From a virus (taxonomy: Duplodnaviria; Caudoviricetes), in the IMG/VR virus record IMGVR_UViG_3300020414_000729, positions 1-43,111 of that record: a stretch of 43,111 nt of DNA; one strand, written 5' to 3'. Both the position numbers and the translations under genes were made by a program. The notes below the pieces were generated by a model that saw only the letters and a program-made list of their open reading frames with translations, was not told the origin of the DNA and ran no database searches. Below are positions 12,144-23,976 of this stretch, one piece after another; position 1 is the first letter of the stretch, and the number at the start of each line of letters is the position of its first letter.

Positions 12144-12423
12144 TCCTGCTTTTTATGAGTCTTATACCATTTTCTCTAAGCCACCCTCTCAACACATCAT
12201 TATGCATATCAGGGTACTTCTCTTTTACTTTTTTACAAACTTCATTATAAACCTTTAATCCCTTGTAGTAATCACTATGCCCTAGCTTACACATACGAAC
12301 TATCTGCCACACCCTCTGTTTTGAAATTTTATATTTCATACCTATCTCTTCTAAAGTAGCGTCAGAATTTTTATACAACATGTATATAGAAAAATACATT
12401 CTCTTTTTATCGTACCTAGTCAT
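12103..12423 (-). CDS. Sigma70 region-4-like HTH protein
   Basis: TLEEIGMKYKISKQRVWQI. Confidence 0.75.
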   Translation of the reverse strand: MTRYDKKRMYFSIYMLYKNSDATLEEIGMKYKISKQRVWQIVRMCKLGHSDYYKGLKVYNEVCKKVKEKYPDMHNDVLRGWLRENGIRLIKSRNGSEISTSNNRLS

Positions 12424-12829
12424 TAATATACCTTTGTCTTAAATCAGTGCTAGAAAATCCATGTTGTCTAGAGTTGTAGTAGATTTCTTTATCAGAGCGT
12501 GGGTTATTAAATTCTGTACAGCCAGTAAATGCTTTTCCTTTATATTCCTCACCTATTATTCTTACATGCCATTTTACCATATTGAGTAAGTTTAATAAAT
12601 CTTGCTCTGTTTCATAACAAATTATTTCGTCCACATATTTACAACCCTTTAATTGTATCTGTCTTTCTATCAAACTTTGTATGGGTTTGCTTTTACTGTC
12701 TCTTTCTAAACTAGGGTCAATATGTAGTCCTACAATTAAATAGTCACAAACACCTTTAGCTTCTTCTAGCATAGCAACATGTCCTGCGTGTAATAAATCA
12801 AAAGCACTAAAAGTAATACCTATCTTCAT
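12416..12829 (-). CDS. Cytidylyltransferase (TagD / glycerol-3-phosphate cytidylyltransferase-like)
   Basis: FDLLHAGH (HxGH) motif, YVDE, and R..GFSST. Confidence 0.85.
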   Translation of the reverse strand: MKIGITFSAFDLLHAGHVAMLEEAKGVCDYLIVGLHIDPSLERDSKSKPIQSLIERQIQLKGCKYVDEIICYETEQDLLNLLNMVKWHVRIIGEEYKGKAFTGCTEFNNPRSDKEIYYNSRQHGFSSTDLRQRYIND

Positions 12830-14697
12830 TTAAAATACTCCAAATAATTTTCTATCTCTCCCCAGCTTTTACCTATCTCAGCATCTACTTTATTAGGTAC
12901 ATTGATTTTTACACAGTCTCTCATAACCTCAATGACTTTTTCACATTCCTGTTTATCTTTAACAGATATATTTAACTCGTCATGCACTTGAGTATGTGCG
13001 AGTATACCTTCTTTATGTAAATCCAGCATAGCTTTTTTAGTCATGTCTGCTGCTGAGCCTTGTATAAGTCGATTCATAGCCTTATATGTAAAAGCCCTTT
13101 TAAGCCCTTTTCCATACGTTTCGAGGGCTTTTTCGTAGGGGTAAGGGGTATCCCTATACGACATAGGTTCGTAAAGGTTAAAGCGACACTTACGTCCTAG
13201 GATAGTCTTTATATAACCTCTATTTGACCCTAGCCTAGCACAAGTATCTCGTAGACCACGGATAAAAGGTACTCGTTCATGATACTGATCAAATAGTATT
13301 TGACCCTCTTCTTCACTAATACCTAATTGACGTATGAGTTTATCTTTACCCATACCATAACTCAAACCTAGATTTATATTCTTAGCTTCCTTACGACTTA
13401 TGTTAGCCATGTCTGCTACTATTTGATGAAAGTCTGCATCATCTGTGTAAGCCTCTGCTGCCTCTTGTGCACCTTCTTGTTTAGTAAGTAGCGAGTAATG
13501 TACTGTAAGTCTAGGCTCTTGTTGAGAGTAATCAAAACAACCCCAGTGACAGTCTTCTTCTGGTATAAATAAACTTCTTATTAAACTGCCTATTTCTGGA
13601 TCACGAGCTGGTACTTGTTGTAAGTTAGGGTTGCTACAACTAAACCTACCAGTGACTGTGCCTCCATCATCTGACCTTAAAGGGTGTAGTTCCCCATGTA
13701 TTCTACCGTCTACCTCGTGGTCTAAAATCATTTTATCTATAAAAGTAGTTCTAGCTTTATTAAGTTTTCTAGCCTGTGCTATCGCTAGTGGTAATTTATG
13801 GTCATGTGCCTCTAACCAAGCAGAAGTAAAACTCGGTGCATTTAGTTTTGGCGATCTAGGGTAATCTAAACCAGCTCTGTCAAATACCTGTGCGACTGAT
13901 GCTGCTGCCCATAGGTCAGGGGTAATACCATACCAATTTTTTATTTGACTTAATATCTTTTGTTCTTTACCCTTTAACTCCTGACTAACTCTATCTGCTT
14001 TATCTAAATCGACTCTTACACCACGTCTCCTCATCTCTATAAGTACCCTTATTAAAGATGACTCAAGTTTATATATTTCACTAACCTCTTCCTCTTTTAT
14101 TTTCTCTTTTAGAGTTTGCCATAATCTATAGGTAAGGTCAGCATCTTGCTCACCATACATGCCAACATATTTGGGTTCTAATTTATACATCTCTGATTTA
14201 GGGTTTAGCCCAAATGCTTCTGCTGCCTCGGTTAAAAGTTTTTCATCTTTTAATTCTCCCATAAACCTTTCGCCTAAACTGTTGAGAGAGTATCTCCTCT
14301 CGTTTTCATTTATCAAAGGTGCAGCAATCATAGTGTCTTGTACAGTACCATTAACAGTAAAGCCCTCATAAGTAAGCCACCCTAAATCATACTGTGCGTT
14401 ATGAAATACTTTATCGTTGTCATGCTCTAACTGTTTAGCTAACCATTTATAGACTACTCCTCTATCTAAATTAGCCCCATAATGATGAGCCACAGGGAAA
14501 TAACCTTTCCAACCTTCTGTAGCTATACCTATCCCAATTATTTCTCCTTGCTTACAAGCCCAGCTCGGACCATGAGTCATAAGCAGTGGGTCTCTAGTTT
14601 CTAAATCAATAGCTATCTCTTTAGCTTGTGTTAAATCAGGGAAACTATCTGGGGGTGTCCAGTCGGACTCAGGTGGAAAGAAACTTTTTTGATCCAT
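12826..14697 (-). CDS. polA: DNA polymerase family A with 3'-5' exonuclease
   Basis: Exo DLET/HNAQYD; TGRFS, motif A DYSQQEPR, motif B RKEAKNINLGLSYG, motif C VHDEL. Confidence 0.95.
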   Translation of the reverse strand: MDQKSFFPPESDWTPPDSFPDLTQAKEIAIDLETRDPLLMTHGPSWACKQGEIIGIGIATEGWKGYFPVAHHYGANLDRGVVYKWLAKQLEHDNDKVFHNAQYDLGWLTYEGFTVNGTVQDTMIAAPLINENERRYSLNSLGERFMGELKDEKLLTEAAEAFGLNPKSEMYKLEPKYVGMYGEQDADLTYRLWQTLKEKIKEEEVSEIYKLESSLIRVLIEMRRRGVRVDLDKADRVSQELKGKEQKILSQIKNWYGITPDLWAAASVAQVFDRAGLDYPRSPKLNAPSFTSAWLEAHDHKLPLAIAQARKLNKARTTFIDKMILDHEVDGRIHGELHPLRSDDGGTVTGRFSCSNPNLQQVPARDPEIGSLIRSLFIPEEDCHWGCFDYSQQEPRLTVHYSLLTKQEGAQEAAEAYTDDADFHQIVADMANISRKEAKNINLGLSYGMGKDKLIRQLGISEEEGQILFDQYHERVPFIRGLRDTCARLGSNRGYIKTILGRKCRFNLYEPMSYRDTPYPYEKALETYGKGLKRAFTYKAMNRLIQGSAADMTKKAMLDLHKEGILAHTQVHDELNISVKDKQECEKVIEVMRDCVKINVPNKVDAEIGKSWGEIENYLEYFK

Positions 14698-14987
14698 TAT
14701 TTTTTATTAGTCATGTGACCTTCTACAAGTAGTAAATACCTTCTTAGGTCTCTTATATCATCAAGTATACCAGTGTTGCTAGGGTCTTCTGTTATAGTTT
14801 TAAATATATCGTAGCCGTTCTTTTTACACTGATTCTCTATCCTATCAAACTTTCTAGCTAACATCATAAATGCACCAACACCACCACGAGAACGCCAACT
14901 GTCACCATAACTGACCTGTGCTTCCTCTAGCTTTTCTACATCATTATGGGCTAGTAATTTAATTAAATCAAAGTTAGATCCATTCAT
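14697..14987 (-). CDS. Nucleotide-modification-associated domain 1 (DUF1599-like) protein
   Basis: YGDSW...G..G...K.DR and D..DL..Y pattern; genomic context. Confidence 0.65.
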   Translation of the reverse strand: MNGSNFDLIKLLAHNDVEKLEEAQVSYGDSWRSRGGVGAFMMLARKFDRIENQCKKNGYDIFKTITEDPSNTGILDDIRDLRRYLLLVEGHMTNKK

Positions 14988-15689: not shown

Positions 15690-16739
15690 TTACTTTATTC
15701 TTCTAGATAACCATCTAAAACAAGCTTCCATCCAGTCATCAGCCTTACAGTGTTGTATTTCTATAAGTGCTTCTTCTTTCATACCTTTCTTAGAAAGATA
15801 CCAAGCATCTTGTATAGGGGCTGCGACCTCAGAGAAAAATGGGTCGTTAAACTCCAACTGCTCAAAAGGTTTTCTAGTAAAAAACATAATTAAGTCAAAT
15901 TCCCAATCACGGAAGCCTACGCTAACCATAGGATAGGGATTTACTTCGTCTAGTTTATACGGATTGTGATTAATTAATAGCTTTATTGTGTAATAATCAA
16001 AAGAATCTATCTGTAGTAGTTTTTCTCTCATAGGCTCGTACACGTTTAAATATGCATGATAATTATTACTTACCTGATAGTACTTACCTATTCGGATACC
16101 TGTTGCTGCAGCTACAAACTCATGCAGCATTGACATGTGCACTACGTTAGCTCCATATGCACCCCAGATAATATCGTTTGACCTATTTGATACTGTCATA
16201 TCGAGACGAGGACTGTAGCCGTCAATGTGTACAGTTTTAAAGTATATAGCCGTATTACAGGGTACGTCAGCTCCATCTCGCCCTAAATCGCCCACAGCGT
16301 CCCACATTTGTAGTACACAGCGTCTGTCATAAATGTCATTTCTAAGTCTATCGATGATAATTCTTATTTGATCTTTGCCAGCAAAATCTTTAAACGTGGG
16401 GTCTTTAAAATAACTACGCCATCTCCATCCATACGCTCCCCACAAAGTATCACCATCATCACTATACCTACTCATGCCTTTATTGTAATGTTCCATAGTG
16501 GCTAAGTCATTAAAACCAGCTAACATCCATAAACCTTCCATAAAATGGAAAAAGGGGTTAGCGTCTCTATCTGGGTCAAATAAAACTCTCTCACGAGGGT
16601 TAGCATAAACTGTAGTGACAGGGTCTTCTACAGTGATAACTTCACCGTTCCTAGTTTTTTCTACGTGACCGTGTGAGTCTAATAAGTCCATGCCTCTCAA
16701 AAAGGCATCGTTCACGTTTCTACATTTTAGTGTGTGCAT
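15690..16739 (-). CDS. Thymidylate synthase homologue, probable dUMP hydroxymethylase
   Basis: GAYGxR, RR, DVPCN (catalytic Cys), RSNDIIWG...N (dUMP-type Asn), HAY; adjacent to a 5-hmdU kinase. Confidence 0.85.
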   Translation of the reverse strand: MHTLKCRNVNDAFLRGMDLLDSHGHVEKTRNGEVITVEDPVTTVYANPRERVLFDPDRDANPFFHFMEGLWMLAGFNDLATMEHYNKGMSRYSDDGDTLWGAYGWRWRSYFKDPTFKDFAGKDQIRIIIDRLRNDIYDRRCVLQMWDAVGDLGRDGADVPCNTAIYFKTVHIDGYSPRLDMTVSNRSNDIIWGAYGANVVHMSMLHEFVAAATGIRIGKYYQVSNNYHAYLNVYEPMREKLLQIDSFDYYTIKLLINHNPYKLDEVNPYPMVSVGFRDWEFDLIMFFTRKPFEQLEFNDPFFSEVAAPIQDAWYLSKKGMKEEALIEIQHCKADDWMEACFRWLSRRIK

Positions 16740-17515
16740 TACTCTCCTACTCCTTCTTTATATGCTTTCTTCCAACCTATGATTACATCCTTACGAGGTA
16801 GTCCGTTCCAAGCAGTTTTAGTTTGTTTCTCTACTACCTTAACACATGTAGGGTGTAAGGAGTGTAGTCTTTCTGCACCTTCATTGTGTACATCAATAGT
16901 TCGCCACTCACTACAACCACCGTCAGCGTTAGATGATTTTTGACCTTGTGCGTAATAGAAACTTACCTTACATGCTTTACCTTTTCTCAGCAGTTGTAGG
17001 GCTATATCAAAATCTTCCATTACCCTAGTCCTACCCCACTCTATATCATCAGGAAACTCGTTTAAGTTATAAGCGAGTACCCTCATGTATCGAGTATTTT
17101 CTACAGATAAATCTTCTACCCTATTATTACCCTCCCTAGCACTTACACCCACGTGGGCATAACCTTGACTGAGCCACTCGTCTAATAAGCCAAACATAGC
17201 AGGATACTCATCAGACTCTAAGTATCGTAAGTGCCAGTCGGTAGGGCTTTTACGAATGTAAAAACGTAAATCATCATCTAGCATAACTATATGGGGGTCA
17301 TCGCTATGCTCTATAATATATTTTCGTTTAGCCCCTATGCCTATACAGTCCTCTGGGACTACCATTTTAGGTGTGTTAGGATATTTAGTATATAAGTGTT
17401 GCTCATCGTGGTCAATGACTAACGTCACGTCTCCATTAACTTGCATCCATTCGGGAAACCATTTTAGAGTTTCTTGATTAGTGGGTCTTCCACGAGTTGG
17501 TATATATATTTTCAT
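16739..17515 (-). CDS. GT-A fold glycosyltransferase (TET-associated / JGT / GREB1-like)
   Basis: IYIPTRGR, R..I, MLDDD, EDFD..LQ...G, GGC motifs. Confidence 0.8.
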   Translation of the reverse strand: MKIYIPTRGRPTNQETLKWFPEWMQVNGDVTLVIDHDEQHLYTKYPNTPKMVVPEDCIGIGAKRKYIIEHSDDPHIVMLDDDLRFYIRKSPTDWHLRYLESDEYPAMFGLLDEWLSQGYAHVGVSAREGNNRVEDLSVENTRYMRVLAYNLNEFPDDIEWGRTRVMEDFDIALQLLRKGKACKVSFYYAQGQKSSNADGGCSEWRTIDVHNEGAERLHSLHPTCVKVVEKQTKTAWNGLPRKDVIIGWKKAYKEGVGE

Positions 17516-18372
17516 AAGTATTGTGCCTCGTTAAAATTAGGGTATTTACTGTAGTTATATTTTGCTCTAGGTCTACCCTCGCCTAACCTAGTTCTCTCAT
17601 ATTTATCAAACTCACATAAACTATGCTCTATCTCTCTCATCTCTAGCTTTGGTACATGTGGCTCTAGATATTTATCTGCTATTTGTAAAAGCTCATACAT
17701 CTCTGCGTTCCAGTCATGTTTATTTGAGTCCCAAGTAAGCGTTCTTAAATTCATTCTATTTAGTCCACGCTTTGCTCCTGGACCTGGATTTGCCCAAGTA
17801 TATATATCACGAGCATTCCTTAATAAATGTGTGTGCCTTAAATCTGTGACAACTTCGTATGACATAAACCCACTAAATCCAGCGTAAGGAAGATAGTTTC
17901 TCCAAGTCTCTTCTAAACTACCAGAAACTATCTCTGGGTGGTTATTATATAAAGGTGTAAGTATTTTGTCTACTGTTTGTTCTATCTTAGTACCACCTAA
18001 AGTACCTGTCAACATATATGCACCTGTGTAAACTTTTTCTCCTCTATCCATTCTATCCTGCATTATGGCTTTTACCTTTTCTGGTTGCCAATCCTCAGGG
18101 AAACCTATCTCTTCTAGGGTGGATGGCCAATTTATTTGACGAGCCACGGACATTGAGAAAGCTAAATTAGGGTGGTCAAAGTAAGGCTCTCTCCAGTTTG
18201 TTCTTACCCATTCTGTGACTGTGTCTAGTTCTCTAAACACATTACAAAAACTATAAGTTTTTAATATCTTATCTTCTGTCCACGGTGGATGAAGACCGTT
18301 TTTTCTCCTTAAATATATTTGGTGTCTTTCATTTATGTAGTTAAAAAACCCTTCTACTTTATCTTGTACCAT
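17512..18372 (-). CDS. 5-hmdU DNA kinase (alpha-glutamyl/putrescinyl thymine pyrophosphorylase clade 1)
   Basis: ER..I, PPWT.D.IL..Y.FCNV.RE.D, F.SYEVV.D, GPGA.RGL, IEH.LCEFDKY.R. Confidence 0.88.
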   Translation of the reverse strand: MVQDKVEGFFNYINERHQIYLRRKNGLHPPWTEDKILKTYSFCNVFRELDTVTEWVRTNWREPYFDHPNLAFSMSVARQINWPSTLEEIGFPEDWQPEKVKAIMQDRMDRGEKVYTGAYMLTGTLGGTKIEQTVDKILTPLYNNHPEIVSGSLEETWRNYLPYAGFSGFMSYEVVTDLRHTHLLRNARDIYTWANPGPGAKRGLNRMNLRTLTWDSNKHDWNAEMYELLQIADKYLEPHVPKLEMREIEHSLCEFDKYERTRLGEGRPRAKYNYSKYPNFNEAQYL

Positions 18373-18821
18373 GATGGTGTACCTCGTTTAGTCCATTTCG
18401 CGAATACTTTTTCGCCTATATAATAGTTTCTATATGCCTCGACTGCATTCCCCTGAACTTTATATTGATCAGGCATGCATTGTGGATGTTCTTGTAGCCC
18501 TTTACTTTTTATCAAAGGGTTGGGCAGTGACATAATAACATCGTAAGATTTATGACATACGTTTTTATTATATCGCCACATAAATTCTTCATTGAGACAA
18601 ATTAACAAGTCCTTTAGCCATAGCCAATTATCTAGACTGGCTGCAGACCATATAGTACAAGGGTGTTTCATATGTACAGGTCTGTAAGGTGCTGTTTGAT
18701 CATGAATCCAAAAACTTGTACAAAGCATTTGAGCTGACTCTAAAATCATTTTAGACACATGTTTGTCACAGTGCATTTCTGCTGCAGTCTGTATATTATT
18801 GTCTAATTTAAAAATATTCAC
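18354..18821 (-). CDS. Pyrimidine-dimer DNA glycosylase (DenV-like family)
   Basis: MNIF.LD, HCDKHV.KMILE.AQML, HPCT.W, AYR.YY; GTG start. Confidence 0.8.
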   Translation of the reverse strand: MNIFKLDNNIQTAAEMHCDKHVSKMILESAQMLCTSFWIHDQTAPYRPVHMKHPCTIWSAASLDNWLWLKDLLICLNEEFMWRYNKNVCHKSYDVIMSLPNPLIKSKGLQEHPQCMPDQYKVQGNAVEAYRNYYIGEKVFAKWTKRGTPSWYKIK

Positions 18822-23394: not shown

Positions 23395-23976
23395 TTAAAC
23401 GCCACTTCTAAATGTGAGGTTGATTCTCTCTCCACAACCTTTCATATCTAACACTGCGTGTGTACTTCTCATTTGAGATTTACCGTCAAATATAAAAACA
23501 TCTCCATCTTCCATTAAATAATGTGTCAAACTTTTTTTAGGAATATACTTAGTGTATATTTCACTAGTGTCTACTCTATCTTTTATGTTCTTTTCGTACT
23601 CTAGCCATTCAAATACTCTCGGTGCACCAAGAGACACGGACAAAACTATGTCATTTTTAGTAGGTACTGTATCAGAGTGGTGGGGTATGCCTTTACCTTC
23701 TGGTCCATAATACCCACACAAACAAAAATTAAATTTTACTTTTCTCTTTAACTTCTCACTTACTAAATATTCTGCGTTTAATTTTATAGCAGTCATAGGA
23801 GTGGTCCATGGCTCAGGCTCATATAGTTTACCAGCATAATTAAAAGGGCTATCACCAAATCCACGAGTTGGTCTACCTACTACCTTTTTACCTTTATACA
23901 TGCGAACTCTTGGCTCGTCCCAAGTAGTTATGCCACAATCAAAACCTGTAAATTCTCCTTTTATAAATTCCATCAT
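23395..23976 (-). CDS. AlkB-like 2OG-Fe(II) dioxygenase
   Basis: HSD, SLGA.R.F, distal H and RINLTFR signature. Confidence 0.88.
   Translation of the reverse strand: MMEFIKGEFTGFDCGITTWDEPRVRMYKGKKVVGRPTRGFGDSPFNYAGKLYEPEPWTTPMTAIKLNAEYLVSEKLKRKVKFNFCLCGYYGPEGKGIPHHSDTVPTKNDIVLSVSLGAPRVFEWLEYEKNIKDRVDTSEIYTKYIPKKSLTHYLMEDGDVFIFDGKSQMRSTHAVLDMKGCGERINLTFRSGV

Follow-up and report, generated by a model that had tools for sequence, protein, structure and literature searches.

Which base does a phage make when genes for a thymidylate synthase (TS) homologue and a putative DNA glycosyltransferase (GT) are coupled to a gene whose family name announces a kinase? This question is raised by a three-gene cluster at positions 15690..18372 (minus strand) of the IMG/VR-type virus record IMGVR_UViG_3300020414_000729. 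In the following, "the window" denotes the whole analysed stretch of this record, i.e., 43,111 linear bases with 36% G+C and a completeness estimate of 72%; the sequencing runs that contain it are marine, estuary or ballast-water metagenomes. The three open reading frames (ORFs; 286, 258 and 349 aa) are joined by ATGA and TAATG overlaps, i.e., they are translationally coupled as described in an original prediction made from the letters alone. That prediction took them for a clade-1 5-hydroxymethyl-deoxyuridine (5-hmdU) DNA kinase, a GT and a dUMP hydroxymethylase, and proposed an uncharacterised thymine (T) modification. We find that the first gene encodes no kinase. In the reading we favour, which we consider about evenly balanced between right and wrong, the cluster is a kinase-free module: the TS homologue would make 5-hmdUMP, the GT would put a sugar directly on part of the 5-hydroxymethyluracil (hmU) in DNA, and the clade-1 protein would return the unsugared rest to T.

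The first gene encodes a clade-1 protein

The product of 17512..18372 (minus strand, 286 aa) matches PF18723 ('HMUDK_hel') over the full length (positions 4-277 of 281; E 1.9e-45, 155.9 bits at a curated cut-off of 25) and is 41% identical to gp55 of phage M6 over 318 columns. Within M6, gp54 belongs to PF18748, gp55 to PF18723 and gp51 to PF18724. By homology, the gene is a clade-1 aGPT-Pplase, i.e., an orthologue of M6 gp55 and not of the kinase gp54. The latter has no tblastn match in the window at E<=0.5, and a six-frame Walker A scan of the window gives a sole match within a UvrD helicase and none in the cluster. An AlphaFold model built from 139 sequences (pLDDT 95.9) consists of helices throughout, and no kinase is among its fold matches. 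The family identity shared with gp55, the missing P-loop and the all-helical model together lead us to reject the kinase assignment; the profile check confirmed the other two families (see below) but returned PF18723 in place of PF18748 for this one.

The proven kinases for 5-hmdU in DNA (5-HMUDKs) are P-loop proteins and add one phosphate (Lee et al. 2022, PMC8989533), so that the pyrophosphorylation ascribed to this kinase family by the original prediction does not hold either. M6 gp54 and gp51 suffice without gp55, which is dispensable for glycine transfer and could not stand in for gp54 in lysates (PMC8989533). Most likely, the Pfam name stems from SP10 gp186, a fusion of PF18748 (35-193) and PF18723 (313-598), whose kinase domain is active by itself (PMC8989533). 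Labels vary elsewhere, too: Table 3 of PMC5889632 gives M6 gp51 as PPlase1 and gp55 as PPlase2, which is the reverse of Pfam and PMC8989533, and RefSeq labels both M6 gp54 and SP10 gp186 as 'terminase small subunit'.

Search for a kinase or transferase beyond the cluster

A profile of PF18748 identified 1/33 records, namely the M6 control, and 0/8 relatives that are at least 90% complete. PF18724 scored above its cut-off in M6 alone, with no match in record G000; the only further match, below the cut-off, is in phiJL001 and falls inside that phage's clade-1 gene. An M6-type system, i.e., kinase and clade-2 transferase within one genome, is therefore seen in none of the eight near-complete relatives, and only the M6 control has it. 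Using M6 gp51, gp52 and gp53 as tblastn queries, no match is found in the window at E<=0.5. That is, neither a clade-2 transferase nor a pyridoxal-phosphate (PLP) or radical S-adenosylmethionine (SAM) gene is detected, in agreement with the original prediction.

We also considered that a kinase could lie in the portion of the genome that the window lacks. Relative G003, which is 79-95% identical to the window in the overlap, runs about 18.5 kb beyond the window's left end, and this extension holds morphogenesis-type or unmatched genes only. For 89 representative proteins of six relatives (at least 90 aa, no match in the window), Pfam assigns families such as terminase, capsid, adaptor and curli; kinase, transferase, PLP and radical SAM families are not among them, and a Walker A scan of the six relatives returns no kinase. 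PF18748, Walker A and Pfam searches thus all fail to provide one, while a very divergent kinase could sit among the unmatched ORFs. Without a true kinase in the window or in 8/8 near-complete relatives, all options relying on phospho-hmdU fall. This concerns a sugar-phosphate base and the use of pyrophosphoryl-methyl-dU as donor for the GT, which both lose their premise, as well as half of a third proposal in which a base-J-like and a phosphorylated hmdU coexist; its base-J-like half survives.

The glycosyltransferase and its gene neighbourhood

The product of 16739..17515 (minus strand, 258 aa) matches the TAGT family PF20691 (E 5.6e-24, 85.7 bits, cut-off 27.5). Its model has a GT-A fold, with GT-A matches up to Z 13.8 and TarP as the top Foldseek match (E 8.6e-07), while searching PDB sequences with the profile of the GT yielded no significant match. 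An R...DDD...EDF motif is formed by R10, D80-D81-D82 and E167-D168-F169. The motif is common to phage DNA GTs and T. cruzi JGT, for which TarP is likewise the top match (bioRxiv 2023.12.21.572611). The TAGT/JGT-like assignment of the gene is thus confirmed by family, fold and motif, and the enzyme is predicted to transfer a sugar to the 5-hydroxymethyl group of hmU in DNA.

Clade-1, TAGT and TS genes are all present in 8/8 of the relatives at least 90% complete. Of 105 GT-anchored loci, 67 have flanks of at least 4 kb to the left and right; a clade-1 and a TS gene are both present in 65 of these, and no kinase or transferase is found in any of the 67. Given this recurrence, the cluster is not a chance arrangement. 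In the two exceptions (L480, L475), the GT is preceded by ParB and by genes for a Tet_JBP oxygenase and a cytidylyltransferase-cupin protein, and the loci lack a clade-1 gene, TS and kinase; the L480 GT is 53% identical to that of the window. ParB-dependent oxygenases of the Tet_JBP kind oxidise T to hmU (PMC13229309). Furthermore, the complete genome MW202897 has TS and GT but no PF18723. The GT hence occurs behind two different sources of hmU and also where clade 1 is missing, which speaks for hmU serving it directly as acceptor. We therefore favour a direct, base-J-like glycosylation of hmU by the GT. The arrangement at L480:7714-10777 (ParB, Tet_JBP, cytidylyltransferase-cupin, TAGT; also in L475 and L474), with no methyltransferase seen nearby, is a candidate for a phage counterpart of the base J pathway.

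The TS homologue and the nucleotide pool

The product of 15690..16739 (minus strand, 349 aa) matches PF00303 (E 6.5e-22) and is 42-44% identical to M6-group enzymes (43% to M6 gp58). When aligned to E. coli ThyA, D158 is found at L143, C161 at C146, D189 at D169 and N198 at N177, where D158 is shared by 17/18 and N198 by 18/18 homologues. An acidic residue three positions before the catalytic Cys is the mark of hydroxymethylases (PMC6400193, PMC13326640), N177 selects dUMP, and D169N marks 5-hydroxy synthases (PMC13326640). Since the D169 equivalent is retained, a 5-hydroxy synthase is excluded, and the residue pattern predicts a 5-hmdUMP-producing enzyme; the dUMP-type Asn of the original prediction is confirmed.

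The family A DNA polymerase gene PolA (12826..14697, minus strand), identified by Pfam scan, is closest to HTVC023P-type phages (50% identity to 023Pt_psg01 / DSL-LC04, 47-48% to pelagiphages HTVC023P and HTVC027P) and would build 5-hmdUTP into DNA. A comparison of 58 window ORFs with PHROGs (30 also with Pfam) yields no dCMP deaminase, dNMP kinase, dUTPase or HD nucleotidase, while many relatives have a dUTPase or HD gene inserted in the cluster.

A swappable slot across clade-1 loci

To relate GT and kinase, we use 414 fetched loci with a clade-1 gene, a redundant set with many close kin, that were screened with our own profiles for kinase and TAGT. A kinase is present in 90 and a TAGT in 210 loci, while no locus has both (0/414). 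After clustering at 60% identity, 86/121 clusters have enough flank, and here 33 carry a kinase, 25 a TAGT and 28 neither; the exclusion is significant over clusters (Fisher p 3e-7, uncorrected for kinship). The GT thus takes the slot of the kinase and not that of the amino-acid transferase, where the original prediction had placed it. The notion of an uncharacterised thymine modification cluster with a GT in place of the amino-acid transferase route stands, and the gene set recurs in the neighbourhood survey, without any kinase beside the TAGT.

When counting cluster-by-slot units that have a TS no farther than 5 kb away (79 in total), the slot holds a kinase in 23, a TAGT in 21, a GT-B in 13, a methyltransferase in 3, an unassigned family in 3 and nothing in 8 units, with 8 mixed units. 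Neighbour family c11, for which a GT-B identity is not established, is counted apart in these units and pooled with GT-B in the tree described next. On a quick clade-1 tree with 92 rows, the partner label changes 47 times compared to 48.8 when shuffled, and well-supported sisters differ in partner. That is, the partner is not clustered on the tree, which fits a clade-1 substrate that is independent of the partner. We tentatively suggest, with considerable doubt, that clade 1 is the hitherto unassigned hmU-to-T enzyme acting on finished DNA and the anchor of a family of modules in which a single, exchangeable capping position is taken by a kinase, a GT-A, a GT-B or a methyltransferase.

Several loci of the set deserve mention on their own. 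A class-I SAM methyltransferase occupies the slot, together with clade 1 and a hydroxymethylase-type TS, at L245:9171-10010, L421:9171-9977 and L306:9174-10010 (16 loci in 3 clusters), which would predict a methoxymethyl-uracil-type base. A real P-loop kinase, a GT-B-like gene, clade 1 and TS are combined at L152:5123-12068, with no clade-2 transferase within 6 kb; this is the nearest thing to a kinase-plus-GT idea. In phiRSL1 (ORF230-238; L148), three TAGT-like genes, a nucleotidyltransferase, a phosphotransferase, a sulfotransferase and an adenosine-phosphosulfate (APS) kinase lie beside clade 1 and TS, and no 5-HMUDK is found in the genome; the gene set suggests a sulfated oligosaccharide on T. 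Along with phiJL001 and LuckyBarnes, phiRSL1 is a cultured kinase-less example. Where clade 1 and TS are accompanied by a GT-B or a TAGT, a gene of the radical SAM/SPASM type is repeatedly found next to them (39 profile matches; e.g., L182, L153, L267, L287, L398) and likely serves further sugar tailoring. Finally, L265 and L272 have two adjoining clade-1 paralogues (350-500 aa) next to a TS, while a capping enzyme is not recognised there.

Predicted role of the clade-1 protein

In both fold searches, the top match of the clade-1 model is the clade-2 transferase gp46 of PaMx11 (8z2m; Z 10.8 (VIA), root-mean-square deviation 3.8, 211 aligned). The protein shares its helix-hairpin-helix (HhH) fold and E-x-x-x-C site, i.e., E249-H250-x-x-C253 aligns with E243-T244-x-x-C247 of PaMx11 gp46, and can be regarded as kin of the amino-acid:DNA transferases (AADTs). 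In clade 2, E-T-x-x-C is the site of metal and nucleophile (PMC11472151, PMC13458397). C253 is kept in 139/139 sequences, and a Glu/Gln is found four residues earlier in 143/148.

Virions of M6, ViI, SP10 and phiW-14 contain T and the modified base but no hmdU (PMC8989533), and all four phages have a clade-1 gene (own searches and PMC5889632), while SPO1, which retains hmU, has none. The methylene intermediate of clade 2 turns into T upon borohydride reduction, and in vitro the M6 kinase put a phosphate on only about 23% of hmdU (PMC8989533), such that most of the hmU destined to become T may be unphosphorylated. Taken together, the site, the virion contents, SPO1, the borohydride result and the kinase yield lead us to predict a conversion of uncapped hmU to T by clade 1, acting on hmU in DNA via C253.

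Proposed pathway and its alternatives

From the gene identities, predicted folds, active-site residues, the absence of a kinase and the co-occurrence, we infer a pathway of three steps. Very probably, dUMP and methylene-tetrahydrofolate would give 5-hmdUMP, to be brought into DNA by kinases of the host and the PolA of the phage. The GT would then, as we think probable, use a nucleoside-diphosphate sugar and the 5-CH2OH group as acceptor to form a base-J-like glycosyl-hmU. In the third step, for which we see somewhat less than an even chance, C253 would attack C6 of a flipped hmU, water would be lost with the aid of a metal bound through E249/H250, and the exocyclic methylene would be reduced to T by a hydride donor. 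Likely, the modification protects from host nucleases. If the predicted role of clade 1 is true, this phage, a member of a marine group that is abundant, would arrive at its base-J-like sugar-thymine along a pathway peculiar to it; clade 1 would then supply a step known from phiW-14, SP10, M6 and ViI, for which the cited papers name no enzyme, and would represent a new kind of DNA-editing chemistry.

A number of observations weigh against this pathway. The Foldseek match between clade 1 and PaMx11 gp46 is weak (E 0.11, TM 0.40), the next fold matches (queuine salvage enzyme, HhH / 8-oxoG glycosylases; Z 9.4-9.5) follow by a small margin, and hhalign of clade 1 with M6 gp51 reports 1.3% probability over 16 columns. 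No cofactor-binding domain is seen in the clade-1 protein, nor is a hydride donor evident. SP10 makes glutamyl-T and has clade 1 with clade 2 undetected, so that the clade-1 protein may be a transferase itself; a hidden clade-2 domain in SP10 gp185 was rejected by our own profile. In Microbacterium phage Pikmin, a distant clade-1 gene lies beside ThyX, with no annotated hydroxymethylase in the stretch read. The presence of clade 1 in 65/67 GT-anchored loci fits equally well a sequential pathway of GT and clade 1, and 36/89 branches of the clade-1 tree are unresolved. The T-even relatives of the window GT (about 25% identity) add a second sugar, not a first one. Lastly, the window is incomplete, and given its lack of pool enzymes the hmU substitution may be partial.

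One alternative is an activating role of the sugar: the GT would cap hmU as the M6 kinase does, and clade 1 would expel the sugar and reduce or substitute the methylene. The mutual exclusion of kinase and TAGT, a capping-type partner in 71/79 cluster-by-slot units and the company of clade 1 and GT in nearly all GT-anchored loci fit this idea. Nevertheless, we consider it unlikely, since methyl ethers leave poorly and 3 clusters have a class-I methyltransferase in the slot; in addition, partner types are unclustered on the clade-1 tree and near-identical GTs are found without clade 1. Equally unlikely is a reading that sees clade 1 as a kinase-independent transferase of a linker (amino acid, amine or polyol) onto hmU that is subsequently sugared by the GT, as in SP-15 / YerA41. 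The retained catalytic Cys site, the two GTs of LuckyBarnes and the three of phiRSL1 would suit such a scheme, as would SP10 with its clade-1 gene and glutamyl-T product (PMC5889632) and RP13, which is heavily modified and for which clade 1 without a detected kinase is noted (PMC13697223). On the other hand, M6 gp55 is not needed for the adduct, no adduct of it is reported in lysates, and clade-2 transfer requires the phosphate (PMC8989533); the GT is also found beside Tet_JBP without clade 1.

Rather improbable as well is that the GT alone makes the base-J-like mark while clade 1 serves to bind or repair hmU-DNA, or in excision from it, and is not a reductase. After the transferase, the close fold matches are all HhH glycosylases or a nucleoside hydrolase, one relative (P0212) is fused to an HhH-GPD domain, and an AlkB-like oxygenase is among the neighbouring genes; yet the invariant Cys with the Glu/Gln four residues before is a transferase-type and not a glycosylase-type site. 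Very improbable, in our view, is a TS that makes plain dTMP or a GT that targets protein or the host surface. While GT-A folds are widespread and the window has no pool-depleting enzyme of a known family, the TS has the hydroxymethylase signature residue, family and motif of the GT are those of DNA GTs, and a tight linkage to TS and PolA is seen repeatedly. Largely refuted, finally, is the idea that the first gene or another one encodes a 5-hmdU kinase and the GT works on or with phospho-hmdU. It could draw on the Pfam name, the fragmentary window and the pairing of a real kinase with a GT-B gene at L152, against which stand the P-loop-free, all-helical protein without kinase fold matches, the independent activity of the SP10 kinase domain, the lack of PF18748 in all near-complete relatives and the gene content of the G003 extension. 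We thus keep the kinase-free module as our preferred reading.

Neighbouring genes

A conserved module gene of 96 aa is located at 14697..14987 (minus strand). It has relatives in 114/130 TAGT loci and matches a stretch within the LuckyBarnes TS; a Pfam scan assigns no family, and a language-model search gives DUF1599 as a lead (11-25% of cluster members). Its product is likely a nucleotide-pool enzyme. An optional neighbour is the cytidylyltransferase-like gene (PF01467) at 12416..12829 (minus strand), with counterparts in 43/130 TAGT loci, all within one cluster of close kin, and in 0/40 kinase loci; as a weak lead, it could provide an activated donor for the GT.

The start of the clade-1 gene is overlapped by a conserved 155-aa gene (18354-18821, minus strand; phrog_624 'DNA binding protein', no Pfam family), which is missing from some relatives and whose product may resemble pyrimidine-dimer glycosylases. 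An AlkB-type 2-oxoglutarate (2OG)-Fe(II) oxygenase gene (PF13532) is located at 23395-23976 (minus strand); in many relatives it directly adjoins the cluster. A close relative (L103:10806-13618) has a cupin, an FkbM methyltransferase, a GT-B and a dUTPase in place of the TAGT. Other relatives (L137:14762-17698, L125:13179-14939) carry the curli genes CsgF/CsgG, FecR and a CHASE2 adenylate cyclase, which are described for such phages in PMC9599517.

Comparison with known systems

With the systems of M6/YuA, PaMx11, ViI, phiW-14 and SP10, which combine hydroxymethylase, 5-HMUDK and clade-2 AADT (PMC8989533), the window shares the TS orthologue, clade 1 and the place beside PolA. Compared with the M6-type system, a P-loop kinase as well as AADT, PLP and radical SAM genes are missing from it, and a TAGT GT is there instead. 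With kinetoplastid base J synthesis (JBP and JGT) and the phage TET-associated GT-A enzymes (bioRxiv 2023.12.21.572611), it has in common the GT-A fold, the motif, the TarP match and a predicted hydroxymethylpyrimidine acceptor. It differs in that hmU would come from the nucleotide pool and not from an oxygenase, since the one 2OG-Fe(II) gene of the window is of AlkB type and not Tet_JBP, and in the presence of an extra Cys enzyme; the tested phage TET-associated GT-A enzymes act on 5-hydroxymethylcytosine (bioRxiv 2023.12.21.572611). A literature search, covering result listings and the papers cited here, returned no measured glycosyl-hmU for a phage that carries these genes, nor a function assigned to clade 1.

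The gene set itself is already in print: for HTVC023P-type pelagiphages, TS, aG/PT-PPlase1 and a putative glucosyltransferase are listed together (Wittmers et al. 2022, PMC9599517). There, the genes are read as M6-like without chemistry, and the portion of that paper examined has no remark on the absent kinase. The set is also present in two cultured phages, i.e., phiJL001 (gp19/gp22/gp24) and LuckyBarnes (gp38-41), which have clade 1, TAGT and TS but no kinase or AADT above cut-off genome-wide. Iyer et al. (2013) are said to have named these families and may already describe this neighbourhood. The GTs of phiJL001 and LuckyBarnes are 43% and 31% identical to that of the window, respectively. 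phiJL001 differs by an extra Nmad5, an HD nucleotidase, DUF3310 and a dCMP deaminase, LuckyBarnes by its two GTs and a longer TS. Compared to the original prediction, the misleading kinase label on PF18723 genes is removed, and the comparison points to a glycosylated thymine that marine phages of wide distribution would make with neither a linker nor a kinase; these two cultured carriers are ready for nucleoside analysis.

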